From: Escherichia coli
GTDB taxonomy: Bacteria > Pseudomonadota > Gammaproteobacteria > Enterobacterales > Enterobacteriaceae
Length of the DNA: 53,474 bases
Strand: one strand, 5' to 3'
NCBI GenBank assembly: GCA_017639185.1
Contig: GCA_017639185.1_4892.1
Below are positions 1-53,474 of this stretch, piece by piece. Positions within the stretch are counted from its first letter, which is position 1; each line of letters starts with the position of its first letter. The translations under genes and the position numbers were made by a program. A model generated the notes under the pieces. It searched no databases. It was not told where the DNA came from and worked only from the letters and a program-made list of their open reading frames with translations.

Positions 1-901
1 GAATAAGTGCCAATAGTGCGTACGAAGTTATTGCAACCATTAACGGGAAGTTATCCCCGATAACGTAGATAAGTCGTTTTATATTTTCAATTGTATTGAA
101 TACAATTTCATCAAACTTTTTAAATGCTGCAGTAAGTGTGGTATCGTTAAGCACTGCAGTAAGTGACTTAACCATATTTATCGCGCCTTTGGTTACCTCG
201 TCCCATACTCGGGTCTGGGTAATCTTAGAGCGAGCAGCATACCAAATTGTACTCAGGTTAGTTAACTGCGCTTTGAGTGTCTGCGACACTTCGTGGGCAA
301 TTGGTTTTAAACGTTCGGCTTCTTGTTTGAGCGCGCTAGTCAGTATGTCGGCAGTGATTTGCTTCTGCCGCATCATATCCTGAAGCTCGCCAAGCTTCTT
401 ACCAGTGTAGCGGGACAATGCGCCCCAGATGTCAACACCGGCGTTAATGAATTGGTTCTTTTCCTGGCCCTGCAATGAACCCATCGCAGTTGCCTGGCCA
501 TACGCAACAATGGTACGCGCCAAATCACCGCCTGTTGCAGCAGTGATTGTTTTGAGCATTTGTAGTGAACCGTTTAACGGGTCAACGCCATACGCTTTAA
601 GTTTAGTAAAGCCGTCTAGTGCCTCTTGAAATGGTGTACCCATTTGCAAAGACATATCCATCAGCGTTTTCCACGTCGATTCGACGTCGTAGCCGAAGCC
701 TTTAATCTTGGCGGCGAGTACGTCAGCCTCTAACGCAGGCGCAAACATCCTACCGAGCGCACCAGCGGCACGCTCAGCAAGATTGATTACATCGCCGAGG
801 GTAATCACAAAACGGCGGGACAGCTGGTCGAAGAGGTCAAAGCCTGCGCTATCGGCTTTACTCTCAAGCGTTACCAGAAAGCTATCGATTATGGTCGCCA
901 T
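1..901 (-). CDS. tail tape measure protein, N-terminal part (runs off window start; joins 52714..53474 if circular)
   Basis: Hand translation from ATG at 899-901 gives MATIIDSFLVTLESK... with a TMP-type segment LKAYGVDPLNGSLQMLKTITAATGGDLARTIVAYGQATAMGSLQGQEKNQFINAGVD. GAGGA RBS upstream. Open to position 1. Not in the ORF track because its stop lies outside the window. Confidence 0.75.
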   Translation of the reverse strand, partial: MATIIDSFLVTLESKADSAGFDLFDQLSRRFVITLGDVINLAERAAGALGRMFAPALEADVLAAKIKGFGYDVESTWKTLMDMSLQMGTPFQEALDGFTKLKAYGVDPLNGSLQMLKTITAATGGDLARTIVAYGQATAMGSLQGQEKNQFINAGVDIWGALSRYTGKKLGELQDMMRQKQITADILTSALKQEAERLKPIAHEVSQTLKAQLTNLSTIWYAARSKITQTRVWDEVTKGAINMVKSLTAVLNDTTLTAAFKKFDEIVFNTIENIKRLIYVIGDNFPLMVAITSYALLALI

Positions 902-1492
902 GGATTTCCTCTAACTCGGCATAGTCCAGAATAGCAATATGCAGGTCGCACAAATCACACAAGCTGTAAGACGACTTTAATTCTGCAAGGGTCACATGAC
1001 CCTTGAGAATAGGAAGCCAAATGAACCAGTCAGTTTCTTGCGTCCCTGACTGTTGCTTGCGTTTTATTTCGTCAAGGGCGTGGCTAGACCCGCTAGACCT
1101 GACAGGCCATTCCCTTTGAAAAAATCCGCGAACTGATATACCAATCCCTCCTTAAGCACACCGAAGATGTGGCTACGATATGCGTTGAAGTGTTGGTCTT
1201 TACAGTCAGACAGCTTACGCGGTTTGCCATCAACTACAACAACAGTATTGCGGAAGATTAATTCCTCAATAGCTGTCATCTCGTCAGAACCTGCGTTCTC
1301 CAGAACAGCGTCCAACAGGACCAGCATTGCTTTCTTACCGTCCACTTTGCCGTCTTTACCCACAATGTCAGCGTTGCCAATGCCTTTGAACAGCTTACCT
1401 GCTTTTTTCAGGACTGTCCAGGCTTGCAGCGCGTTTGCGAGTGTCATGTTGTACGTTACGTCGTCGATGTCAAATGATTTGGGCTCAGTCAT
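882..1492 (-). CDS. tail assembly chaperone, candidate -1 frameshift-extended form (GT-like)
   Basis: The -1 frame is open from the slippery site T_TTT_TTC (plus 1118..1124) through the gap between chaperone stop (1064) and tape measure start (901), ending at TAG 882..884. Hand-translated extension: FFQREWPVRSSGSSHALDEIKRKQQSGTQETDWFIWLPILKGHVTLAELKSSYSLCDLCDLHIAILDYAELEEIHGDHNR. Confidence 0.4.
1064..1492 (-). CDS. tail assembly chaperone (G-like)
   Basis: 142-aa ORF between the tube-like gene and the tape measure gene, the conserved position of tail assembly chaperones. Carries a slippery heptamer near its 3' end. Confidence 0.55.
   Translation of the reverse strand: MTEPKSFDIDDVTYNMTLANALQAWTVLKKAGKLFKGIGNADIVGKDGKVDGKKAMLVLLDAVLENAGSDEMTAIEELIFRNTVVVVDGKPRKLSDCKDQHFNAYRSHIFGVLKEGLVYQFADFFKGNGLSGLAGLATPLTK
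1118..1124 (-). promoter_or_regulatory. candidate -1 ribosomal slippery heptamer (U UUU UUC)
   Basis: Minus-strand GAT TTT TTC in the chaperone zero frame matches X_XXY_YYZ. Sits 18 codons before the chaperone stop. Confidence 0.4.
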
Positions 1493-1510: not shown

Positions 1511-1942
1511 TTACTGGTCAAAGCCTTCAGTCAACTGCATGCCACCTTGGTGGAACACAATAGAGAAGGTAGTCGGGTTATGGCCGTTACCACGAGTCCA
1601 CGGGGAACCGTCGGTAAAGTAACCTTTCTTACCCCATGCTAAATCCTGGTTTAGCAGGTCTTTAGCTTGCAGCACAAACGGGACGAATCCACGAATGTTG
1701 TTACGCTGCAGGTTGTATTGGTCGTTAAGCCATTTGGCGTCCGGACCACTTTGCTTAACTTTGATAGTCAGCTTAATGGCTTTGGACGGGTTCATAATCT
1801 GGATACCACCGCCATCAGCGCCTGCAAGATAGGTGGAAGCTGGGTCCACCCATTGCACGTCAATGACATCGGCACCGTCTGCCCAGTCGGACAGCTGAAC
1901 ACCATTCAGGCTCAACACGCATTCAGAAGAATCGATGATCAT
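1511..1942 (-). CDS. tail tube-like protein
   Basis: 143-aa ORF directly downstream of the sheath-like gene and upstream of the chaperone and tape measure. Call by synteny only. Confidence 0.5.
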   Translation of the reverse strand: MIIDSSECVLSLNGVQLSDWADGADVIDVQWVDPASTYLAGADGGGIQIMNPSKAIKLTIKVKQSGPDAKWLNDQYNLQRNNIRGFVPFVLQAKDLLNQDLAWGKKGYFTDGSPWTRGNGHNPTTFSIVFHQGGMQLTEGFDQ

Positions 1943-1953
1943 TGATCTGCTCC

Positions 1954-3093
1954 TTAGCGAGTGAAGTTAATCAGGATGTCGCTGGAGTGGATTGCACCAG
2001 CCAGCTTAATCGCGATTTGCATTACAACGGCCTGACGAGCTTCACGCTCATCCAGAGGCTGGTCATCTACGTCAGGGATGTAGATGTAGAAACCTGTTTC
2101 GAGTCGGTCACCATAAGACAGTGTACCAAACTCATCACCGTACCAGATACCAGGTGCAACCAAGCCGTTGTCGACAGCCTGCTGACAAGCAACAGCTGCA
2201 GCACCGGTAAGGCGCTCGTGACCTTTGTTCGTCTGCGGCACCTTCGTGGGTGACGTAGCGATTGAGTTGAAGACGTAAGTCTGAACTGCATTACAGAACC
2301 AGTCTAGACCGTGTACTTCATCCCAGAAGCGCGGCGGCTTGGACGTACCAAGGACAGTACCTTCTGCAAGCATAGCAAAGGTGCTGTAGTAGGTGTACCA
2401 GTTAATACCCAGCGCTTTACACTTGTTAGCTTCAGTAAGCGTTAAAGTGTTGTTCGGTGTAATACCAGGCTCTTGTTTGAACTTCATGGTAATCGTGGTG
2501 CGGTTACCAGAGAAGTTAACGGACAGAGCACGCGCCATAGCAGAGATGTCTGCGTAGTGCTGGTTGTTCTTATCATACTGAAGCCACATATTGTTGTAGC
2601 CTTTACCAGCCAGAACTTTAATCGGGTTGGAGTCGCTGTTTTCAATATGAGTTGCTTTAGTGGTAGTATAGCTGCAACGCTTTTTGTCGTAAGCAGCAAC
2701 AGTTGACGCCAGCAAATCGATGTCATCGTCAGACAGCTCACCAGTAGGTGGGAGCGGACGCAGAACATACCAGTCAGGGTACACATCGTTGAATGCTTTA
2801 ATAGCCGCATCCAGAGTAGAGGTGTTGTTCCATGAGGCGATAACTACTGAACGAGGACGCGGAGATTGTGCAAAGAAAATCTTCAACGCGCCAAGCACAA
2901 CTGAACCAGTACCCCAATAAGACTCGGCTTCAGAGTAGCTGCCGATTTCAACATAGTGTCCGTTTTCGCTGTCAGGAAAAGCAGTGCCAGGGTCCTGAGT
3001 TAAAAGAGCCAGCTTACCGAAGTCACCTTTGCTGATACCAGTTGGAGTGTTGTTCAGTTGAACGTTTACAATCTGGTTTACATTCAACGGCAT
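1954..3093 (-). CDS. tail sheath-like protein
   Basis: 379-aa ORF in the sheath position (before tube, chaperone, tape measure), with baseplate-like genes further downstream. Call by synteny and size. Confidence 0.5.
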   Translation of the reverse strand: MPLNVNQIVNVQLNNTPTGISKGDFGKLALLTQDPGTAFPDSENGHYVEIGSYSEAESYWGTGSVVLGALKIFFAQSPRPRSVVIASWNNTSTLDAAIKAFNDVYPDWYVLRPLPPTGELSDDDIDLLASTVAAYDKKRCSYTTTKATHIENSDSNPIKVLAGKGYNNMWLQYDKNNQHYADISAMARALSVNFSGNRTTITMKFKQEPGITPNNTLTLTEANKCKALGINWYTYYSTFAMLAEGTVLGTSKPPRFWDEVHGLDWFCNAVQTYVFNSIATSPTKVPQTNKGHERLTGAAAVACQQAVDNGLVAPGIWYGDEFGTLSYGDRLETGFYIYIPDVDDQPLDEREARQAVVMQIAIKLAGAIHSSDILINFTR

Positions 3094-12508: not shown

Positions 12509-13222
12509 TTATTTGCCCCATTGTGTGTTTTGGATTTTAGCACGAGCACGTGCTATGCGGTCATCCCCGCCCCCGAAAGTGTGCTGTTCGCCACCGCCGT
12601 TCCCACCAGGATTAGCTCCGCCGCCGTTGGCACCGCCACCGCCAGCCTTGGTTCCACGCACAAGAGGTGCAAACTGCTTATCAGCGCGCATATGTTCCAC
12701 TAGTTCATCTGGCGTTGTAGCAGTCGGGTTACCCATAACATCCACGACAGTAGTACGCCACTTACCATCAATTTCCTGAGCGCGCAGTCGGGCCTTGATG
12801 TGTGGCATAATAAGTGCCGGGGTGTCAGAGAGTTGGTTAGCCAGGTTCAGCGCCAGGTTATCAACCATTTGCGCTTCCAGCTGAGCTTGCAGCTGTGCCT
12901 GACGATTAGTATACTGTTCCAGTTCAGCCTGATGCTTCTCTTTGATAGAGCGCTCAAGAGATTCAACATCACGCTCACGACGTGCGCGTTCTTCTTCAGC
13001 CAGGCGAGCACGTTCAGCTTCTTTTTTCTTTTCTTCGAGAAGCTTTTTGGTGTGCTGTTCCATACGCTGTTTTTCTTTGCGCAGGTCTTCTAATTCTTTC
13101 AGCGTTTTTTCGTCTGGTTCAACGTCCAAACGGAATGCGCCAGATGCTTCGTCTTTGATATACAGGCCACGGAAGCCTTCATCAACTTCGGTAAGGTCAG
13201 TTACAACTGTTTTAAGTGCCAT
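12509..13222 (-). CDS. capsid scaffolding protein
   Basis: 237 aa, highly charged coiled-coil region (EELEDLRKEKQRMEQHTKKLLEEKKKEAERARLAEEERARRERD). Lies between portal and capsid genes. Confidence 0.65.
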   Translation of the reverse strand: MALKTVVTDLTEVDEGFRGLYIKDEASGAFRLDVEPDEKTLKELEDLRKEKQRMEQHTKKLLEEKKKEAERARLAEEERARRERDVESLERSIKEKHQAELEQYTNRQAQLQAQLEAQMVDNLALNLANQLSDTPALIMPHIKARLRAQEIDGKWRTTVVDVMGNPTATTPDELVEHMRADKQFAPLVRGTKAGGGGANGGGANPGGNGGGEQHTFGGGDDRIARARAKIQNTQWGK

Positions 13223-14963: not shown

Positions 14964-16412
14964 TTACCGTCCCATATTTATTTTGAGCTTGGTAGTATAA
15001 CGGTTGATGCCACGCAACACCATGTAACGACAATCATCGTATACGTGGTCTTCAGAGTTCGTGTCGACATCTTCCGTGTTGTTCTTGTCACGCGGCAGAA
15101 CCGGCAACGTGTTTATGGCTGCTGGACAGTTTTCCATGAAATAAATGCCCGGCTTTTCCGTTTCGTCCATCTTAACATTTTTCAGAAGCTGACGGAATAG
15201 CTCTAAGCCATTTATTCTCGAACCTTGTGACTTGTCGGCCTTGACCCAGGTTACGCCTTCGTCTTCCATTTTCTTCGCGATAGTCTCAACGTCTTTTTCC
15301 TTGCACGCATAAATCTGACTATCCGCCGGACCAGGATTAACGTTACTTTGAATCCAGCCACCAGCCTGCAGATTTTCCTGTAGGCGAAGAACACCTTGAG
15401 CGACTTCGGCAGCAGATAGCTTAATACCCCTGTTAGCTTCTTTTTCAGAGCACCCATACCATTCAGCTATACGTATAATTGAACCACGCGGAATAAAGTA
15501 CTCATTGCCTTCGTCGTCTGTAAGCGAGGCACCATTTGCGATAGCCCAGATACCAACAGAGAACGGGTGAGTAGAACCCCAGTCAAGAGAACGTTCGATA
15601 GTCCAGCCTTTCGGAATACGCATACGCGGCAGAATACACTTGGTTGACCATACGTCGTCAAGCGCACCACCAGCAACAATATCCCAGTCACCCTCTTTCA
15701 TCGCAGCAACAAGAGCCGGGTCACCAAGACCTTCAAGACGGTCACCGTAGTCAGGGTCGTTTTCCATCAGCGTAGGGTTATCAGTCATCTTAGCCGGAAT
15801 GTACTGACGAGCCATACCGCCTTCGCGTTTTTCCTGCTTAACGATTTTCATCGGAGGAGCAGCAGTTACGAAAGTGCGCTTAACCCAGTTATGACCAACA
15901 CCACCAGGGTTTGACCCACAAAAGATGAGTGGCAGTGGCCGGAAAAAGTTCTCAGGTACTTTGAGAGCACCGAGTCGGACACGGTTACGCAAGAAGCGGT
16001 ACATCGTTTCTGTGAAGTGAGTAAGCTCATCCATCAGCAGAACGTGAATCTCCGCACCCTGGTAGGTATAAATATCTTTTTCGTACTGGAGGTGACAGAG
16101 TTTGATGTTCGCACCGTTCCAGAATTTGATAGTGTTGCTCGAGTAGTTAATCTTGCACTTGCCAGCTTTGCACATACCATCCAGCAAGGCAGGATAACTT
16201 GTGGGACCAACCATGTGGTTAGCCGTAAGGTCGTTATAGTTTCGGCGGAAAAGGTAAATCTGCAAGTCAGGAATCATGCAACACATGATAATTGACATTA
16301 CACGCATAAGGTGAGACTTACCACCACCAGCAGCACCACCGTACAGAATCTCAGTTGCCTGAGACTGCAGAGCGGCACCTTGTCTGTCATGCAGGTGAAA
16401 GTCAAGATTCAT
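14964..16412 (-). CDS. terL: terminase large subunit
   Basis: Walker A YGGAAGGGKSH near the N-terminus, Walker B-like VLLMDE, nuclease-sized C-terminal half. Followed by the portal gene. Confidence 0.85.
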   Translation of the reverse strand: MNLDFHLHDRQGAALQSQATEILYGGAAGGGKSHLMRVMSIIMCCMIPDLQIYLFRRNYNDLTANHMVGPTSYPALLDGMCKAGKCKINYSSNTIKFWNGANIKLCHLQYEKDIYTYQGAEIHVLLMDELTHFTETMYRFLRNRVRLGALKVPENFFRPLPLIFCGSNPGGVGHNWVKRTFVTAAPPMKIVKQEKREGGMARQYIPAKMTDNPTLMENDPDYGDRLEGLGDPALVAAMKEGDWDIVAGGALDDVWSTKCILPRMRIPKGWTIERSLDWGSTHPFSVGIWAIANGASLTDDEGNEYFIPRGSIIRIAEWYGCSEKEANRGIKLSAAEVAQGVLRLQENLQAGGWIQSNVNPGPADSQIYACKEKDVETIAKKMEDEGVTWVKADKSQGSRINGLELFRQLLKNVKMDETEKPGIYFMENCPAAINTLPVLPRDKNNTEDVDTNSEDHVYDDCRYMVLRGINRYTTKLKINMGR

Positions 16413-16415
16413 TTA

Positions 16416-19518: not shown

Positions 19519-19755
19519 AATGTTACCCACAAGTAGGAGACCGTGAGGCCGTTTGATGATTCACATTAATGATAGCGCGTGGAGGAGAGAAAGTACACCA
19601 CTTTTTAGTGAGTGTCTACACAATTTCCGAAAAATATAAAAAAATTTTAGAGGGGCTTCACTTATTATTGTGTTAAGCAAAAGGTTAGCTCCTGCCGTAT
19701 TACTCTGATGATGATTGGTCCTGATAAGGAGAAAATACCAAAAAATAAAAAAAAT

Positions 19756-19828
19756 TCCGCTGGCTCCTGGCGGGTAGCACCCTTGCGAAATTACCCCCCG
19801 CCGCACCTATTTCGATTGAAATGATTAC
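19756..19828 (+). repeat. control-region repeat unit A1
   Basis: About 70 bp, roughly 70% identical by eye to the unit at 19933..20003. Shared blocks CGGCTCCT, GCACCC, ACCCCCGCCG, ATTT.GATTGA, ATTAC. Confidence 0.6.
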
Positions 19829-19932
19829 TATGGTAACTATTGCGATTGATACAATTACCGTGTGAACTACTTCGGCCGTTATAGTACAAAGCGTCTATAA
19901 TTCAGATTGAAATTATATTTTTATAAATAATT

Positions 19933-20003
19933 TCGCCGGCTCCTTTAAGTGGCACCCCTACGTTACTATAACCCCCGCCGACCATTTTGGATTGAGTAAT
20001 TAC
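19933..20003 (+). repeat. control-region repeat unit A2
   Basis: Second copy of the unit at 19756..19828. Confidence 0.6.
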
Positions 20004-20149
20004 ATGCGAAACTATATCAATTGCATATGAGAACCACTCTCAATCGCAAGTGATTATCATTTCTAAAAACTTGCATAAACTTGCAATTCTTTTATGTACA
20101 ATCAATAGCGATTGGTCTATTATATATTTATTGAATGTGATGACTGATT

Positions 20150-20166
20150 GACCAGTCTAACTGGTC
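20150..20166. promoter_or_regulatory. perfect palindrome (candidate operator)
   Basis: GACCAGT-CTA-ACTGGTC, 7-bp arms. Overlaps a TTGACC -35-like hexamer. Confidence 0.45.
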
Positions 20167-20312
20167 TGGAGGATATTGGTATGGTTTAGATTTGGTAGGT
20201 AGTACTTAACCAGTCAACAGGTACATCTGGTAGATGTCAATGGTACCTTTTGCTCTTTAACAATTTGGTAACATGTTTCTTGTTGATAGTAACACTAGTA
20301 ATAGTTTCAACC

Positions 20313-20338
20313 AGTGACTATTGGTATCAATAGTCACT
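20313..20338. promoter_or_regulatory. perfect palindrome (candidate operator upstream of first early gene)
   Basis: AGTGACTATTG-GTAT-CAATAGTCACT, 11-bp arms with 4-bp spacer, about 30 bp upstream of the ATG at 20367. Confidence 0.5.
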
Positions 20339-20366
20339 CCTGGAAACTAATACAAAGGTAACTATT

Positions 20367-20669
20367 ATGAAACTGAACAATATCACGTCTGACGTAGAAA
20401 TGCAAGTCACAATCATGTCAATAGTTGAAGACATGCGCCAAGTGTGTATTGAAAGCAACATCTGTTATGATAACGTACAGCAATTATTTGTTGAACTTAT
20501 TACAGGTGCTGAAATAACTGATAATAAACTCTTGATTGACTTGGTCCGCGAAAGACTGATCTTAATTGGCGAAAACTTTGCGGCAGATGGCTTTAATGAA
20601 ATTTATCATGATGACTTCAGGCATTTGTTGAAAGTCGTACAAGCTGTTGAAAACGCAAGCGCGAAGTGA
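20367..20669 (+). CDS. early hypothetical protein
   Basis: 100-aa ORF, first gene right of the control region. AAAGG RBS. Confidence 0.5.
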   Translation: MKLNNITSDVEMQVTIMSIVEDMRQVCIESNICYDNVQQLFVELITGAEITDNKLLIDLVRERLILIGENFAADGFNEIYHDDFRHLLKVVQAVENASAK

Positions 20670-20762
20670 TTTCAATCATGACAACTTGACAAAAGTTGTC
20701 ATGTTTGGACTTACTTGCCAAGGATTGGCGCTTATCAAAATTCTATCAACGAGGATACATCA

Positions 20763-21332
20763 ATGACAACTATCAACTACGTTTACCTGACTTCCGCTTT
20801 TTCTGTCGAGTCTGTGAAATCTGGTCTGACTACTGAAAGTCTTGGCACTATTGTAGTGCAGATGGATAGTCTTCAGTACTTTGCCAATAACCAGATCATT
20901 AAGATGATTAAGTCGCTTAATGATGAAAGTTCTGTAAGTGTCAAAGACTCTAAAGAAGTGCTGGTGAAGGCTTTGTTTGACGAGCTGAACCAACTGGAAG
21001 TTGAAGAAGTCAAAGTTGCGACAACACGAGCATCCGCTGGTGGCTCTCGCAAATCGTCATCTGGTCCGTCAACTAAAGATACCTGCTATCTGGTGTTCAA
21101 AGATTACAACTTGATGGATAAAGAAGATTCCAAATTGGCGCTCGCTGATGCGATGAAAGCTTGCGGAATGGAAGCGGATGATATTAGAGCAAAACGTGTT
21201 ATCCAGTCATATATGTCATACTACCGGAACGATGTAAAATCTGGTAAAGTGACTGATGGCAAATCAGTAACTGGCAAAAAACCTGATACTGAAGTAAAAC
21301 CTGAAACTGAAGCACAAGAAACTGAAGAGTAA
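20763..21332 (+). CDS. early hypothetical protein with acidic/Lys-rich tail
   Basis: Start at ATG 20763 (GAGGA RBS) rather than track start 20715. C-terminus KPDTEVKPETEAQETEE. Confidence 0.5.
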   Translation: MTTINYVYLTSAFSVESVKSGLTTESLGTIVVQMDSLQYFANNQIIKMIKSLNDESSVSVKDSKEVLVKALFDELNQLEVEEVKVATTRASAGGSRKSSSGPSTKDTCYLVFKDYNLMDKEDSKLALADAMKACGMEADDIRAKRVIQSYMSYYRNDVKSGKVTDGKSVTGKKPDTEVKPETEAQETEE

Positions 21333-21398
21333 TTTTTGAGATGGCGCTCAAGTAGTGCCATCAATGAAAGTTATTCACAATCAACAGGAGAGAGAAAC

Positions 21399-21557
21399 AT
21401 GCTTAAAATTAAACTGACCAAAGACCAGGCGATGGCCTTGCGTGATATGATGATTGAGTTAGAGAAGATGGGCACTTTTTCTGATAGTTCTCACACTTCA
21501 ACTCTTGATTATATTGTTGAAGCCATTGACGACAAATTTTCAGGTTCTGAGGAGTAA
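21399..21557 (+). CDS. small early protein
   Basis: 52-aa ORF. ATG preceded by the 22-bp initiation block ATCAACAGGAGAGAGAAACATG. Confidence 0.45.
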   Translation: MLKIKLTKDQAMALRDMMIELEKMGTFSDSSHTSTLDYIVEAIDDKFSGSEE

Positions 21558-21562
21558 TCAAA

Positions 21563-21820
21563 ATGACTGACATTGAGATGAAAAAAGAACTGGACTTTTA
21601 TGCTGAGCAGTATTGGGCTGAATGGGATGAAGGTTCACAAGAATTTGCGGAACTGGTGATAGATTCAGGAATTGATGAAGTGCGCCAACACGCCTACATC
21701 ATCAACATGAATCTGGCGTCAATTATGGGTATCATCGCCAGCGAATTTTCTGATGGCGAGCGGGACCATGAAGACGTTGTAAGACTGGCAAAAGTTATGG
21801 CTTGGGTGGATGCATTATGA
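21563..21820 (+). CDS. small strongly acidic early protein
   Basis: 85 aa with about 20 Asp+Glu and 6 Lys+Arg by eye. Confidence 0.5.
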   Translation: MTDIEMKKELDFYAEQYWAEWDEGSQEFAELVIDSGIDEVRQHAYIINMNLASIMGIIASEFSDGERDHEDVVRLAKVMAWVDAL

Positions 21821-21990
21821 AAGACCTGAAATTGACTGAAGACGAATTGGCGCACCTGATTGAATTACTGGAATCAAATGCCCAAATTGTGAAAGATCAA
21901 ATATCTGATGCTGTTGGTGGTTCCAAAGAGTTTGATAACTTGATGGAAGATTTCCGGCTGACAATTCAGATCGCAACAAAGTTAGCATAG
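21817..21990 (+). CDS. small early protein
   Basis: ATG overlaps the upstream stop (ATGA at 21817..21820). 57 aa. Confidence 0.45.
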   Translation: MKDLKLTEDELAHLIELLESNAQIVKDQISDAVGGSKEFDNLMEDFRLTIQIATKLA

Positions 21991-22058
21991 TTTCAACAAT
22001 GAACTGTCCAAAGTTGTGATAGTTCATTTTTGAAATTATATCAACAGGAGAGAGAAAC

Positions 22059-22448
22059 ATGTACAGTGCAAAATGCGAAGATGGTATCTATACCGTATAT
22101 TGTGACGGTAAAGTACTCAAAGTTCTGCCAAACGCCTTCAAGTTTGAGCAATTCATGACGGTGTTGTGGGAGAGCCAGGAGATTAGTCGGGAAGACATTA
22201 TTGACCTGATGAATCCCTTGATGGGGTACCATCCAATTCGTGAGTTTGACAGTCGTCCAACTTGGTACAAGCTGGAAGATGGCAAAGTCTGGGAACAAGC
22301 CTGGGACAGATTTGAAGGTGGTTACGGCCACTGGACGGTTTACGTCGATGGTGATGATGCCCAACGCTACTGGGAAGCAATCAAAAATTGTGCGACCCGG
22401 GACGTGACTGATCCGGAATACGACGAGTCAAAATTTGAGGTCAAGTGA
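22059..22448 (+). CDS. acidic early protein
   Basis: 129 aa. Same 22-bp initiation block as the gene at 21399. Confidence 0.5.
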   Translation: MYSAKCEDGIYTVYCDGKVLKVLPNAFKFEQFMTVLWESQEISREDIIDLMNPLMGYHPIREFDSRPTWYKLEDGKVWEQAWDRFEGGYGHWTVYVDGDDAQRYWEAIKNCATRDVTDPEYDESKFEVK

Positions 22449-22648
22449 TGCCACTAGTCAAATTTACGACGGTAGACCTTGCCCATGGATTGCCACCCAA
22501 AGCTGAGCAAAAATTCTTGACAGTTGAGGAGTGGCATATCTGGTGCCAGTCAGCTCTAAAATCTGGGGCTAAACGCACTAATGGTGGAAAAGTGTTTACT
22601 CGCTTCAATAAAGAGTGTATAATAGTAGTTCAGGTAATGATGGAGTGA
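22448..22648 (+). CDS. small early protein
   Basis: ATG at 22448 overlaps the upstream stop (TGATG). Confidence 0.4.
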   Translation: MPLVKFTTVDLAHGLPPKAEQKFLTVEEWHIWCQSALKSGAKRTNGGKVFTRFNKECIIVVQVMME

Positions 22649-22897
22649 TATTAATCAAGTCCTGGTACTGACAGGGCTTGATTAAAAGCTGGTAATTGAT
22701 TCAATCCTGAGGATTTGCCAAAAGTCCTCATGATTGAATTAACCCACAAGTGGAGGCCTTATGGTCCGATGTAAACATGTTGTTGAGTATTCTGTTGTGA
22801 ATCCTGCATATGCTGAAGGTCGGGCTATGAGGAAGCTGGTTGGGATCTTTCTGATAATTCTTATGGTATTGGCTTATGTTTTCTAAGGATGATTTAT

Positions 22898-23065
22898 ATG
22901 ACATTGCTCGACGTGTTAATCAACGCGATTTATCTGGTGTTACCGATCTTTTTTCTGCCGGCACTTCTGACGATGCGGTATTACGCGAAGCGGAGCGGCG
23001 CCAAGCAGAAATACAAAGAACTGCAAGCTGCTGGAATTATCAACCCCCGAAAACTGTACCGTTAA
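22898..23065 (+). CDS. small predicted membrane protein (alternative to track ORF 22876..23121)
   Basis: Hand translation MTLLDVLINAIYLVLPIFFLPALLTMRYYAKRSGAKQKYKELQAAGIINPRKLYR. AAGGA RBS 8 nt upstream. One hydrophobic helix. Confidence 0.35.
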   Translation: MTLLDVLINAIYLVLPIFFLPALLTMRYYAKRSGAKQKYKELQAAGIINPRKLYR

Positions 23066-23120
23066 CCTGGGTTGACATGACAATTTGGTTATTGAATAAA
23101 CTTGGAATAAGGAGCAAATA

Positions 23121-23300
23121 ATGTTTAAATTCTTACAACGTAACCCGGTCAAAGGTGGCATGCAATACTGGGTGGATATTCATGGCGGTGAGTATATGAT
23201 GATCGTCCGCGATGGTAAACCTGCTGAAAGCTCTTTCGCTAAAGGTTGCAACGTTTACAACCAACTGTTTGAGTTCCTGGTTGAAGGCGATTACTTGTGA
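23121..23300 (+). CDS. small early protein (59 aa, below track threshold)
   Basis: ATG at 23121 preceded by AAGGAG. Translation MFKFLQRNPVKGGMQYWVDIHGGEYMMIVRDGKPAESSFAKGCNVYNQLFEFLVEGDYL. Confidence 0.5.
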   Translation: MFKFLQRNPVKGGMQYWVDIHGGEYMMIVRDGKPAESSFAKGCNVYNQLFEFLVEGDYL

Positions 23301-23482
23301 TTGGCTTAATCCTGGCAACATGTGTGGCTACTCATGATTGTAGTTACAAAATTGTTGAATCCAACCCTGAATGGACTACCGTTGAACAATGTGCCGCCGA
23401 TAGTCCATACACCTTACTGAATCTTGGTATTATCCCTGCCAAAAATCAGCGTGTTATTTGTGACGAGCTGAAACAAGATTAA
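23297..23482 (+). CDS. small protein with N-terminal hydrophobic segment
   Basis: GTG start overlapping the upstream stop. N-terminus IGLILATCVATHDCS. Confidence 0.35.
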   Translation: MIGLILATCVATHDCSYKIVESNPEWTTVEQCAADSPYTLLNLGIIPAKNQRVICDELKQD

Positions 23483-23910
23483 TTGACGTGATATTGAGTG
23501 CCGGGCGCAACGTAATAGTTGTAGACCCGGCAAAATTGTTCCCATGTTAATTCTACTAGACCCACAAAGAGGCGATTTGATGCCTCGTTAAAAGTCGTGC
23601 CACTTGGAAAACAGTCAATCACATCAGCCTTATTCATCACCACGGTAGGCTGTTTTCTTGGTAGTTCGTATATCAGCACTGGCATCTTGTTCTGAGCCTT
23701 TGCCGATGCCGCACACTGTCTCCACCATGTTCCGATAGACTTGGTATTGTGCTTCTTCAGTTCAACACTGAAAAACGGCACACCCAGCAAGTCATCCCCG
23801 CCATTAATAGACTGTTGAAGATTGCGCTCAACAGTTAATCCGAACGAGCTATTAAATTTTTTAGCCATTTTACGCTCAAAGTTCTGCCCCTTGGCTCTAA
23901 TATTTACCAT
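23479..23910 (-). CDS. PD-(D/E)XK nuclease, Hjc-like Holliday-junction resolvase candidate
   Basis: KGQNFERK...GGDDLL...FSVELKK pattern (E, D, ExK spacing) read by eye. Stop codon shares bases with the convergent plus-strand stop at 23479..23482. Confidence 0.35.
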   Translation of the reverse strand: MVNIRAKGQNFERKMAKKFNSSFGLTVERNLQQSINGGDDLLGVPFFSVELKKHNTKSIGTWWRQCAASAKAQNKMPVLIYELPRKQPTVVMNKADVIDCFPSGTTFNEASNRLFVGLVELTWEQFCRVYNYYVAPGTQYHVN

Positions 23911-24410
23911 GCACTGTTTCCTTTTAAAATCTGGACTACGCGGTCCAAAGAGTTACCATTTTCTACTTGTTTTTTCCATACTGTCATAATTCTTGACTTA
24001 AGCCTTGCTCTTCCGTGGCAGTCAGCTGTAGCATACGCACGGAGTAAGTCTATTTCATCAGACAGTAGATCCAGCGCTGGTTGAAGCTCTGGTGCAACAT
24101 AATAACCATTCCCACGAATGGTTGGGAATACTTCTTCGTATGCCCAGCGCTGAAATGCTTTAGCTGATTCAAGATGTGAACCGAATATAGCCTGATAAAT
24201 ACCAGGTTCAGTTACCCATACGGCTCCTTTGTCATCAGTAATTTTATAATCGCTGTCTAACCTTTTATAAAGTTTTTTCGAGTGACTGTAGCCTAGCGCT
24301 TTAGATAAATCGCTTCCTTTAACAACAATGAGGGGAACCATTTTGGTTCCTCTATTAATTGATGAAAATGTGATATTTTTACCTTCAAATACTTTTACAA
24401 TTGGATTCAT
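23904..24410 (-). CDS. Bro-N domain protein (antirepressor-like)
   Basis: N-terminal FEGKNITFSSINRG...VKGSDLSKALGYSHSKKLYKRLDSDYK matches the Bro-N pattern. Start uncertain (24410, 24425 or 24473). Confidence 0.5.
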   Translation of the reverse strand: MNPIVKVFEGKNITFSSINRGTKMVPLIVVKGSDLSKALGYSHSKKLYKRLDSDYKITDDKGAVWVTEPGIYQAIFGSHLESAKAFQRWAYEEVFPTIRGNGYYVAPELQPALDLLSDEIDLLRAYATADCHGRARLKSRIMTVWKKQVENGNSLDRVVQILKGNSAW

Positions 24411-24671
24411 AGTTGCACAACTCATCTGTTGAATAATAAATATATTATAACACACACTAACATACAATAACATAGTAAATATCACCGAAGCTTGCCACGC
24501 CTGGCTTTAGACATGCCTACGAATTATTTATCAGTCCGGTTTTTTATTATTTTTCGCCAGCGTAAATTTTTTTTCATCCGGTTCTGATATTAATAAAGAG
24601 ATAAACCGGATCATACATATAGACGCCTCTAAGTAGCTGTTTTTATTACTTCTAATATAATTAATAATATA

Positions 24672-34865: not shown

Positions 34866-34893
34866 TATAAAGTTAATGAGGAGATGATAACAA

Positions 34894-35394
34894 ATGTCAC
34901 GTAATGCTGAAGCAAGAGAGGCTCGTGAAGCTGGGTTAACTCGGTTTATATCTTCTTATCCTTGTCGTAAATGCGGAGGAACAGAGTTTAAAGTAGCCGA
35001 CGCTTCTTGCTGGACATGTAGGAAAGTAAAACAAAACGCTGTTAGGGCAACAGAAGAAGGTAGACAGTACGCCAGGGATGCTTGTAATAAGTTCCGTAAA
35101 GAAAACCTTGAAGAAGAAAGAGCACGAGGTCGTGCTTATTTCAAGACTGAGCGGGGTAGAGCATTAAACCGTGAAAGACGAACAAGACGAAGAGCTATTG
35201 TAAAACAACAAACACCTGGCTGGGCAGACTTGGAGGCTATTAGAATGTTTTATCTTAATTGTCCAGCTGGCTATGAAGTGGACCACATTATTCCACTTAA
35301 AGGCAAATTGGTATCAGGTTTGCATACTCTATCAAATCTGCAATACTTACCTGCAGACGTCAACAGAAGTAAAGGAAATAAATATGAGCTTTGA
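34894..35394 (+). CDS. HNH endonuclease
   Basis: Zinc-ribbon CRKCGGTEFKVADASCWTCRK, then HNH core GYEVDHIIPLKGKLVSGLHTLSNLQYLPADVNRSKGNK. Confidence 0.75.
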   Translation: MSRNAEAREAREAGLTRFISSYPCRKCGGTEFKVADASCWTCRKVKQNAVRATEEGRQYARDACNKFRKENLEEERARGRAYFKTERGRALNRERRTRRRAIVKQQTPGWADLEAIRMFYLNCPAGYEVDHIIPLKGKLVSGLHTLSNLQYLPADVNRSKGNKYEL

Positions 35395-39494: not shown

Positions 39495-40378
39495 TGAAAA
39501 CATATAGCACTGTCGATTCTCTTTACAGCGACATCATTTCTTTTATCTTGCGTAAAGGCGAGGATGTTGTAGACCGTACAGGTGTTGGTACCCGCCGTTG
39601 TTTTGGTACGGCGTTTAAACTGGCTTTCAACGACAACAAACTGATGGTGCCGGTGTTTAAACCTGTTAACATCAAAGCTGTTGCTGCTGAGCTTTACTGC
39701 TTTATCAACGGCATTTCAAACGTCGACACGCTCAAAGGCTTTGGCTGCAACTGGTGGGAAGGTAACCTGCAGGACGCAAACAAACGTTGGGGTACGCCAG
39801 ACAACCGTGACCTAGGTCCTGTGTACGGCGTGCAGTGGATTAAGCCTTTCTATAAGAATGGTGTTCTCACTAACCAGCTTAAAGATGTTATTGAAACGCT
39901 GAAGGTTAAACCTACCGATCGCCGGGCGTACATTACGGCATGGAACCCACAAGAGATGGATGCTATGGCCCTTCCGCCTTGTTACCATGGTTTTCAGCTG
40001 TTCATTAACAACCGTAATGAATTAGAGCTGATGTTCCATATGCGTAGTGCGGACGTTATCCTTGGTCTGCCACATGACATCCTGCTTCATCAGATGTTGC
40101 AGATTACCATTGCTGCTGAGCTGGGTACTGGGGTAGGTGATATGACTGTTACGTTGGGTGACTATCACATCTATCAGAATCATATCGATGCGGCAAAGAT
40201 TTTCCTGCAACGTATCGTAAGCAATTCTGATACTACACTGGACACTAACTTTGAAGGTCGTCCTGACATTAACGCGATTTATGACGTGTCAGTATTTGAC
40301 TTCACTCCTGCCGATGTTGCGCCAATGGTTGAGAAGTACAAACCAATGCCAAACATCAAACTCCAAATGGCCGTATAA
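39494..40378 (+). CDS. thyA: thymidylate synthase family enzyme (ThyA-like; dUMP-type specificity Asn present)
   Basis: Motifs VDRTGVGTRR, DLGPVYGVQW, ALPPCYHGFQLF (catalytic Cys), GDYHIYQNH (Asn at specificity position). Residue after the catalytic Cys is Tyr, not the usual His. Confidence 0.65.
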   Translation: MKTYSTVDSLYSDIISFILRKGEDVVDRTGVGTRRCFGTAFKLAFNDNKLMVPVFKPVNIKAVAAELYCFINGISNVDTLKGFGCNWWEGNLQDANKRWGTPDNRDLGPVYGVQWIKPFYKNGVLTNQLKDVIETLKVKPTDRRAYITAWNPQEMDAMALPPCYHGFQLFINNRNELELMFHMRSADVILGLPHDILLHQMLQITIAAELGTGVGDMTVTLGDYHIYQNHIDAAKIFLQRIVSNSDTTLDTNFEGRPDINAIYDVSVFDFTPADVAPMVEKYKPMPNIKLQMAV

Positions 40379-51508: not shown

Positions 51509-51821
51509 CTGTAGTCATAGGACCGATGCGGCTGGAGGATTTGTCACTTACCAGCAACGCTATACGCGTGTCCCAGTTACCAAAAGCAATACGCCCATAT
51601 TGTAAAGCATAACTGGAACAAAGTACAGCATTACTTGATATGTCAGTCACTGTAGCCTGCCAGAGCTGACCTACCGTGTTATAGTACAACTCAATGTTAT
51701 ACGTATATCCAGCGATAGAAATTGATATTGATTGCTTACCTTCGGAGGTAGGTTCCAAGTCGTAAATACCAGAACCATCATTACCTATAATGTCAAGGAA
51801 AGCAGTTGTGGTAAATATCAT
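51429..51821 (-). CDS. tail structural protein, unknown function
   Basis: 130-aa ORF. Confidence 0.35.
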   Translation of the reverse strand: MIFTTTAFLDIIGNDGSGIYDLEPTSEGKQSISISIAGYTYNIELYYNTVGQLWQATVTDISSNAVLCSSYALQYGRIAFGNWDTRIALLVSDKSSSRIGPMTTDDMGGRCSVYIVDKTAYPSVWPRVKA

Positions 51822-52717
51822 CAGAATATGCCTCGTAAGTTAAAGCCAAACATGTCACCGAGTGTTACACCAAAACCGCGGTTATCGTTTACACGTTTCT
51901 CGCTAATCGGTGTAGTTGTGTTTATGTCCTTCTTACTGGTGGCATCACCCTGTCCTTGTGCACGTCCGCTTTTCTTAGTGCCGTTATTAGCAGGGCGGCC
52001 TGTCGACTTAGCGGCTACAGCGTTTGTAACTACAATCGGCACTTCGATGACTTCACGGAACGTAAGGGTAAACGTAGCTGAACCGTCTTTCTCCTGTACA
52101 ACACGAACAGACTTCAAAAGCATATTCGTATACTTGAAGATACCAGTGTCAACGTCACAGTAGATAACGTTTTTCTGTAAATCCAGCAAGGTACGGTATA
52201 CCTGTTCAATCCTCATATTGTCCGAAGACTTAAGCTGTTCAGCTATACTAAAGTCAGGAAGCCATGGAACTAAAGAGCGTGAAATGGTAGCGTCTAAACC
52301 GCCCCAGTCTATAAAGGATGCTAGCTTGTTAACAGCAAAGTCCCTTGTTCCTTCAAGCGCAGTAGACACTACCTGTGGAAGCTGAATATCATCCAAGAAA
52401 TCCATAGACCGTAGACCGGTTACATCCTTAATTGTTGACTCTTGAATTGACTCGTCGATATAACCAACTACCACGCCAGTTACAGTAATAACTTTTGGTT
52501 GTACTGCAGCATGGTCCGAAGCCTTAGCCCCGGACTCAAGTTCATTGTCAGCGATGTCAAGGTCAGACTGATGTTCCTCATTGGTGACAGCATCCATCTT
52601 AATGCCTCCGCAGTTGCGGAAGCGTAAGGTGGTCGTACCGTCGCCCATGAGTCTGTCGCGGGCTTCTTGGTACAAGTCGTTGGCAGCATCAGTAATTCCA
52701 GCAAAGATGTCACTCAT
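51821..52717 (-). CDS. tail protein downstream of tape measure (distal tail / DNA-circulation-like)
   Basis: 298-aa ORF immediately after the tape measure stop. Confidence 0.35.
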   Translation of the reverse strand: MSDIFAGITDAANDLYQEARDRLMGDGTTTLRFRNCGGIKMDAVTNEEHQSDLDIADNELESGAKASDHAAVQPKVITVTGVVVGYIDESIQESTIKDVTGLRSMDFLDDIQLPQVVSTALEGTRDFAVNKLASFIDWGGLDATISRSLVPWLPDFSIAEQLKSSDNMRIEQVYRTLLDLQKNVIYCDVDTGIFKYTNMLLKSVRVVQEKDGSATFTLTFREVIEVPIVVTNAVAAKSTGRPANNGTKKSGRAQGQGDATSKKDINTTTPISEKRVNDNRGFGVTLGDMFGFNLRGIF

Positions 52718-53474
52718 TGTGTTACCGCCGTTTTGTTGTTAGCCCTTACAGTAGCATTCTCTTTCTGCGCCTGTTTGACCTGGTCATTGACCTCACGACC
52801 TACTTCTTGTGGGTTCTGTACACCGGTAATAGTAGCGTCAACTTTAACGCTATTATCCTGGTGGATAACAGTCGCGTTCTGCTGCTGGTTTTGCTTAGCA
52901 GTATTTATCGCCGACTGCATAGCCTGACCGCCAGCTGTCATCTCCCCTGTAATAGGGTTGAAGTTACGCATTGACCAGTTGAGTGCCCTACTCCAGAAGC
53001 TTCCGCCCTGTTCAGTGGTAGGCGACACAGCATTGACAGTAGCCTCCGCACCTGTCACAAGTTTGTTACCAGCAAAGCCCAGTGTAGAATCTAGCTTACC
53101 AAACAACGCCATCAGGAACTTACCGCCAGGCAGCTGGTAAAGTGCTTCAGACAACCACAGCTTTATTTGCTCTATGCCTTGCTTAACTTCGCCGAGGAAA
53201 CCTTGCCACCAGTTACCGAGCCGGTTCCATAAGCGGCCGTCAAATATTGACAGAATAAAGTCTGCAATAACTACGATATACTGCTTGACAATTCCCCATG
53301 CAGCAACAACGTCTTTTGACCACTTAACAACTGTCTCACGTCCTGCCAGAGCATCATCGAGGTCAGCGAGTACAGCAATAACTGCGCCGATAGCAAGTAC
53401 AATCCACGTAAGCGGGTTCATAAGTATTTTGGCAGCTAAACCCACAAAGGCATTGCCGACCTTAGTCAGCACGG
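52714..53474 (-). CDS. tail tape measure protein, C-terminal part (5' end beyond window end; joins 1..901 if circular)
   Basis: Frame open to the last base of the window. Window-end sequence VLTKVGNAFVGLAAKILMNPLTWIVLAIGAVIAVL continues the hydrophobic segment that ends the 1..901 translation. Confidence 0.7.
   Translation of the reverse strand, partial: VLTKVGNAFVGLAAKILMNPLTWIVLAIGAVIAVLADLDDALAGRETVVKWSKDVVAAWGIVKQYIVVIADFILSIFDGRLWNRLGNWWQGFLGEVKQGIEQIKLWLSEALYQLPGGKFLMALFGKLDSTLGFAGNKLVTGAEATVNAVSPTTEQGGSFWSRALNWSMRNFNPITGEMTAGGQAMQSAINTAKQNQQQNATVIHQDNSVKVDATITGVQNPQEVGREVNDQVKQAQKENATVRANNKTAVTQ

Follow-up and report, generated by a model that had tools for sequence, protein, structure and literature searches.

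Tail genes at the ends of the window

The window, meaning here the whole 53,474-bp stretch of DNA that was analyzed, begins and ends within minus-strand open reading frames (ORFs). The original prediction proposed that an ORF starting at 901 and open to position 1 and an ORF ending at 52714 and open to position 53474 belong to a single tape measure protein (TMP) gene divided by the window ends, and that the window is probably a complete 53,474-bp genome. The features flanking the two ends, listed in minus-strand order, are the following:

1954..3093, minus strand: tail sheath gene (phrog_205, E = 9e-94; yarpen RefSeq annotation gp60/gp61)
1511..1942, minus strand: tail tube gene (phrog_280; yarpen RefSeq annotation gp60/gp61)
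1064..1492, minus strand: tail assembly chaperone gene, encoding 142 aa and immediately preceding the TMP gene (Pfam Phage_TAC_9, E = 3.7e-33; Phage_TAC_15, E = 1.7e-16)
882..1124, minus strand: predicted programmed -1 frameshift (heptamer T_TTT_TTC at 1124..1118; -1 extension of 78 aa)
1..901, minus strand: 5' part of the TMP gene (ATG at 901..899; codons 1-300 and the first base of codon 301)
52714..53474, minus strand: 3' part of the TMP gene (last two bases of codon 301 at 53474 and 53473; codons 302-553; TGA at 52716..52714)
51821..52717, minus strand: Dit-like distal tail protein gene (Pfam Dit_like, E = 5e-22; phrog_817)

The minus-strand order of sheath, tube, chaperone, TMP and Dit-like genes, followed by the baseplate genes as annotated in phage yarpen, matches the standard arrangement of contractile tail modules and becomes complete only when the window is read as a circle. 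The ATG of the Dit-like gene overlaps the TMP stop codon as ATGA.

Translation bore out the extent of both terminal ORFs: the one opened by ATG at 901..899 contains no stop codon down to base 1, and the frame closed by TGA at 52716..52714 remains open upward to base 53474. The reverse complement of 52714..53474 concatenated with 1..901 is 1,662 nt long, divisible by three, and translates as one ORF of 553 aa with a single terminal stop and no internal stops. The junction codon, formed by the complement of base 1 followed by those of 53474 and 53473, reads CCC (Pro301), confirming the codon and the common frame that had been anticipated, in the residue context ...NFPLMVAITSYALLALI-P-VLTKVGNAFVGLAAKIL... 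A Kyte-Doolittle scan of the joined protein revealed a hydrophobic segment at residues 284-307 that straddles the join, again as foreseen, and further hydrophobic segments at 313-345 and 356-378. Two unrelated reading frames would agree by chance in about one case in three, and the decisive evidence must therefore be homology.

A Pfam search with the joined protein identified one family, TMP_3 (PF20155), at residues 73-226 with a score of 73.1 bits (E = 3.1e-20), above the curated cut-off of 41 bits for this family. Among the PHROGs, phrog_29251 ("tail length tape measure protein") aligned over residues 1-553 to positions 1-560 of a 560-position profile, in one stretch and with 1243.9 bits, and about a dozen further TMP families matched the joined protein more weakly. 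Since a single full-length match runs through both halves, these cannot be unrelated, and the tape measure protein of about 553 aa put forward in the original prediction is upheld by this profile and by TMP_3. The profile score above threshold, together with the position of the gene in the tail module, places the product in the TMP family, and the two terminal ORFs are halves of a single TMP gene. The product is an ordinary TMP, with a TMP_3 domain near its N-terminus and hydrophobic segments in its central part.

The same gene is uninterrupted in relatives. Both yarpen gp58, annotated in RefSeq as "tail length tape measure protein", and JEP7_16 are 1,662 bp long, equal to the joined ORF, and their products differ from the joined protein at two residues (yarpen) and at one (R463K, JEP7). 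In alignments with the more distant TMPs of ZCSE2 (73.8% identity), Erwinia phage SOI901 (63.0%) and fHy-Eco03 (62.2%), the join is ungapped, Pro301 is invariant and its neighbors are also conserved. The TMP gene already has an annotation in RefSeq relatives. Compared with the TMP_3 and PHROG 29251 families, the protein shows no notable difference, and its 553 aa are short for a TMP. TMPs span approximately 0.15 nm of tail per residue, which would correspond to about 83 nm here, against the 120 nm reported for the tail of the relative swi3; this discrepancy was not counted as anomalous, since the published length is an electron-microscopy measurement whose span is unspecified. Homologues of the protein have been seen in virions by mass spectrometry, namely fHy-Eco03 gp35 (record note) and S144 ORF23.

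A separate observation concerns the chaperone gene located immediately upstream. Tailed phages have a conserved chaperone frameshift of the G/GT type, and by analogy with it the heptamer T_TTT_TTC is predicted to act as a programmed frameshift site. The -1 frame of the chaperone ends at TAG 884..882, 17 nt inside the TMP gene, and the predicted fusion product would comprise about 203 aa. The heptamer, its codon position and a -1 extension of 76-79 aa are conserved in ZCSE2, SOI901 and fHy-Eco03. Frameshift site, codon position and extension sequence persist across four lineages, the most distant of them at about 62% TMP identity. Among the records listed, the fusion product is unannotated, and in two of them just the final part of the -1 frame is annotated, as a small gene of its own.

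Colinearity with complete relatives

Terminal redundancy had been suggested as a check on completeness. A search for exact overlaps of 5-400 nt shared by the window's termini found none. Without an overlap, closure is unprovable from the window alone, and evidence was therefore taken from these relatives. A 3-kb junction query, consisting of the last 1,500 and the first 1,500 bases of the window, matched 58 records of the phage collection, and in 50 of these the match extended across 80% or more of the query. Each of the best 30 of the 58 matches formed one colinear piece, with JEP7 at 99.5% and yarpen at 99.3% identity. Comparison of the whole window via blastn revealed colinearity throughout with JEP7 (52,936 bp, in a circular record) and with yarpen (52,464 bp), of each of which the window is a circular permutation, with its end bases located as follows:

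Window base 1: JEP7 position 16412; yarpen position 39852
Window base 53474: JEP7 position 16413; yarpen position 39851

The window ends are therefore neighbors, with no base missing or duplicated between them. A total of 52,375 of the 53,474 window bases align to yarpen, leaving only 86 bp of yarpen without a counterpart in the window. Over 98.0% of its length the window is 98.6% identical to yarpen, a product of 96.6%. Under the ICTV criteria, the product of identity and coverage is at least 70% for members of a genus and at least 95% with respect to a species exemplar; with these thresholds, the window belongs to genus Rosemountvirus and, by the 95% rule, to species Rosemountvirus yarpen. 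Self-comparison of the window detected no internal duplication above E = 1e-5 except an 80-nt palindrome, and a tRNA scan of the window returned no tRNA genes. Its GC content is 46.0%, versus 46.02% reported for Rosemountvirus swi3. Records identical to the window or opened at the same point were sought in the phage collection; the best matches reached 98-99.5%, and none 100%.

The two closest relatives, yarpen (NC_048863.1) and JEP7 (MT764207.1), both assigned to Rosemountvirus yarpen, share the gene order of the window genome-wide and differ from it in the base at which the record opens, which lies inside the TMP gene in the window and elsewhere in theirs, and in a few accessory genes. Two window segments, 23911-24516 and 34891-35383, are missing from yarpen. 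They contain the following ORFs, both present in the window and absent from yarpen and JEP7:

23904..24485: Bro-N/anti-repressor-like ORF, in segment 23911-24516; also found in 16 further records of the group
34894..35394: HNH/endonuclease VII-like ORF, in segment 34891-35383

Within the phage collection, the latter segment was found only in phage renfri, where it is 100% identical. Conversely, the homing endonuclease JEP7_67 is present in JEP7 and absent from the window. The net insertions of about 520 bp and about 493 bp explain the 1,010-bp difference in size between the window and yarpen.

Two alternatives to a complete genome with an exact join bear on these results. The window might be an incomplete fragment whose terminal ORFs come from different genes and share a frame by chance, a reading to which the one-in-three prior for frame agreement and the lack of an overlap proving closure lend some room. 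It is nevertheless extremely improbable in view of the one-stretch, full-length match of the joined protein to a TMP family, its distance of one or two residues from the uninterrupted TMPs of relatives, and the adjacency of the ends in two complete genomes to which the remainder of the window is fully colinear. Alternatively, the genome could be complete and the join slightly in error, through loss or duplication of a few bases, making the 553-aa reading accidental, since circularization and trimming do sometimes leave or remove a few bases. The chance of this is minimal: a 300-nt sequence spanning the join (150 nt per side) is exact in JEP7, no base separates the two ends in either JEP7 or yarpen, the alignment across the join is ungapped and the gene has the 1,662-bp length seen in relatives. 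We are highly confident that the window represents, in full and without redundancy, the genome of a virulent Rosemountvirus with a contractile tail, of the species represented by yarpen and JEP7, opened arbitrarily within TMP codon 301. The proposal of a complete genome is supported by the base adjacency and the colinearity with JEP7 and yarpen, with the qualification that 53,474 bp measures the non-redundant sequence and not necessarily the virion DNA. The genome type itself is already known, with over 50 public records and several papers devoted to it.

Opening point of the record

Public Rosemountvirus records start at many different places. The JEP7 record starts at the terminase gene, and the records of the yarpen group start upstream of the portal gene, cutting the gene equivalent to window ORF 12509..13222 (JEP7_03). 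The start point of a record is a choice of assembler or depositor, and the break at the window ends is a linearization artifact, with nothing biological located there. In the proposed sequence of events, the assembly would have been closed into a circle and written out from an arbitrary base within TMP codon 301; circular closure is expected for this group of phages because their packaged DNA is terminally redundant. We infer a circular contig with its overlap trimmed, which fits both the lack of overlap between the ends and their base-exact adjacency in relatives.

The join itself brings no new biology, and its value is mainly practical. The window may be used as a whole phage genome, and the truncated ORFs at its ends should be annotated as one TMP gene, an instance of the apparent partial genes that an arbitrary opening point produces.

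Predicted chromosome ends and terminal repeat

Repeat boundaries mapped in two relatives, fHy-Eco03 and vB_SalM_Sz, correspond to the same two positions of the window, 24558 and 19762, delimiting the following predicted features:

19762..24558, minus strand: single-copy counterpart, 4,797 bp long, of the direct terminal repeat in relatives (fHy-Eco03 and vB_SalM_Sz repeat mapping)
24558, minus strand: predicted left end, with sequence GGCGAAAAATAATAAAAAACCGGAC...
19762, minus strand: predicted right end, with sequence ...GGTGCTACCCGCCAGGAGCC

For fHy-Eco03, PhageTerm identified direct terminal repeats of 3,699 bp encompassing 11 genes, which restriction digests confirm (PMC8145870); its record (MW602648.1) annotates both copies, and its authors remark that the BP63 sequence lacks the repeat (PMC8145870). 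The 57,020-bp record of the Rosemountvirus vB_SalM_Sz (PP236111.1) carries, as deposited, 4,263-bp ends that are 100% identical. For S144, a member of the sister genus, restriction mapping ruled out both cohesive ends and a circular map and placed an end in the gap between the last and first gene clusters (PMC7432712), a gap homologous to window positions ~19.5-20.4 kb; its authors read the digests as indicating short, not long, terminal repeats (PMC7432712). The linear LPSEYT record opens at most 10 nt from 19762, and a check of that record for a terminal repeat found none. Most Rosemountvirus records have been deposited without the repeat. Genome ends are not addressed in two other Rosemountvirus papers, and the packaging information used here comes from the S144 and fHy-Eco03 papers.

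The genome architecture of fHy-Eco03 and vB_SalM_Sz is that of the window, in which both repeat-boundary sequences are recognizable, and their repeat spans the same small early gene cluster and RusA-like resolvase gene. The stretch differs in being present once in the window and twice in these two phages, and in its length of 4,797 bp, compared with 4,263 bp in vB_SalM_Sz and 3,699 bp in fHy-Eco03; the excess over vB_SalM_Sz is mostly due to the Bro-N insertion in the window. If the boundaries act here as they do in relatives, the packaged DNA would measure about 58.3 kb and the window would represent its collapsed unique sequence. This prediction of a terminal repeat is drawn from two relatives, and the predicted 58.3 kb (the window plus a 4.8-kb repeat) exceeds by 2% the 57.0 kb found in each of the two relatives whose repeats are mapped. 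The packaged DNA is probably about 58.3 kb long, with ends that lie about 20 kb from the window ends and not in the TMP gene.

A competing explanation takes the window ends for physical ends, with headful packaging from concatemers yielding circularly permuted chromosomes, and the sequence reflecting a molecule or population that ends in the TMP gene. The many opening points of records in the genus would suit such a mechanism, but they are accounted for by arbitrary opening, as in the yarpen record that cuts the equivalent of ORF 12509..13222, and the match of the large terminase to a T4-type N-terminal domain, which also points this way, is weak (19.7 bits, under the 22-bit cut-off). A headful molecule would moreover carry terminal redundancy, and the window ends do not overlap. 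Relatives with mapped ends show fixed termini and exact direct repeats, not permuted ones, and the window retains, at 19762 and 24558, the sequences that bound these repeats. We consider this explanation very unlikely, and headful packaging with permuted ends was rejected as the cause of the position of the window ends in view of the fixed ends and exact repeats of relatives.

Under the preferred reading of a circularized assembly opened at an arbitrary base, the true chromosome ends would by homology lie at ~24558 and ~19762, in or beside non-coding DNA, and the terminal repeat of ~4.8 kb would have been collapsed to one copy in the assembly. "Complete" circular phage assemblies can in this manner conceal a collapsed terminal repeat. 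A better opening point for the record would be the predicted end near 24558 or 19762, or a position upstream of the terminase gene. More broadly, we lean slightly toward the view that this phage, and probably the whole genus, has a chromosome of ~57-58 kb with a direct terminal repeat of ~4-5 kb bounded by a conserved inverted cut-site motif, that most public genomes would consequently be ~4-5 kb short, and that the chaperone has a frameshifted product, unannotated among the records listed.

The two predicted repeat boundaries share a motif, with one copy inverted relative to the other, which reads A-tract-TT-(N)-CGCT|GGC in the window and in vB_SalM_Sz. The boundary motif of fHy-Eco03 is TGCC|GG; the motif thus differs between the window and vB_SalM_Sz on one side and fHy-Eco03 on the other, and within each phage both sides change together. 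The 80-nt palindrome detected by self-comparison is imperfect and is located at 20286..20365, in a divergent intergenic gap.

Counterpart of the long direct terminal repeat

The window carries a single copy of a stretch equivalent to the long direct terminal repeats with which two related phages, fHy-Eco03 (MW602648.1) and vB_SalM_Sz (PP236111.1), have been deposited.

19762-24558, minus strand: counterpart of the terminal repeats of fHy-Eco03 and vB_SalM_Sz
24540-24600 and 19740-19780: predicted repeat boundaries, sharing a motif in inverted orientation
20286-20365: imperfect 80-nt palindrome, 77.5% self-complementary

The fHy-Eco03 repeat spans 3,699 bp, as established with PhageTerm and digests (PMC8145870), and that of vB_SalM_Sz 4,263 bp, its two copies being 100% identical in the record sequence. 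Mapping placed the repeat boundaries of both phages on identical window bases, 24558 and 19762, and the linear record of the related phage LPSEYT starts within 10 nt of position 19762. Because the repeat-equivalent stretch is present only once in the window, the virion DNA of this phage is probably ~58.3 kb long.

With a slash marking the predicted boundary, the left end in the window reads GAAAAAAAATTTACGCT/GGCG and the right end, in reverse complement, TAAAAAAAATTCCGCT/GGCT. In contrast, fHy-Eco03 presents TGCC/GG at both of its repeat boundaries. Since the motif differs between the window and fHy-Eco03 at both boundaries together, the sequence comparison suggests that it is a candidate site at which the packaging nuclease binds or cuts.

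The palindrome sits at the edge of a ~560-bp divergent gap (19806-20367) separating a leftward from a rightward gene cluster, and may correspond to a divergent promoter/operator region or to a replication origin.

Gene content relative to yarpen and JEP7

Comparison with the closest relatives, yarpen (NC_048863.1) and JEP7 (MT764207.1), delimited two segments of the window that both lack.

23904..24485, minus strand: Bro-N domain gene, anti-repressor-like
34894..35394, plus strand: HNH/endonuclease VII-like ORF (phrog_1035, phrog_338)

The Bro-N gene, located within the predicted terminal-repeat stretch and adjoining a RusA-like resolvase gene, belongs to a segment (23911-24516) where yarpen and JEP7 have 86 bp of other sequence; 16 further records of the phage group also carry the gene. 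The HNH/endonuclease VII-like ORF, absent from both relatives, forms a clean insertion (34891-35389) with the Cas4-like exonuclease gene on one side and the helicase gene on the other, and its sole match in the phage collection, in Salmonella phage renfri, is 100% identical. The ORF behaves as a mobile homing endonuclease would. A different homing endonuclease, JEP7_67, is encoded by JEP7 and missing from the window.

The linear yarpen record is cut within the counterpart of window ORF 12509..13222 (JEP7_03 in JEP7), which is consequently left without annotation in yarpen. It adds to the cases in the genus in which a gene is split by an arbitrarily placed record start.

Predicted frameshift in the tail assembly chaperone gene

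882-1492, minus strand: tail assembly chaperone gene (Phage_TAC_9) with its -1 extension
1124..1118, minus strand: -1 slippery heptamer T_TTT_TTC, conserved in sequence

The predicted -1 extension comprises 78 aa and stops at 884..882, within the start of the tape measure gene. Both heptamer and extension are kept in fHy-Eco03, ZCSE2 and SOI901. The predicted frameshift fusion is not annotated in the public records listed, and the tail of the -1 frame is called alone as a small ORF in ZCSE2 (gp14) and SOI901 (SOI901_59).
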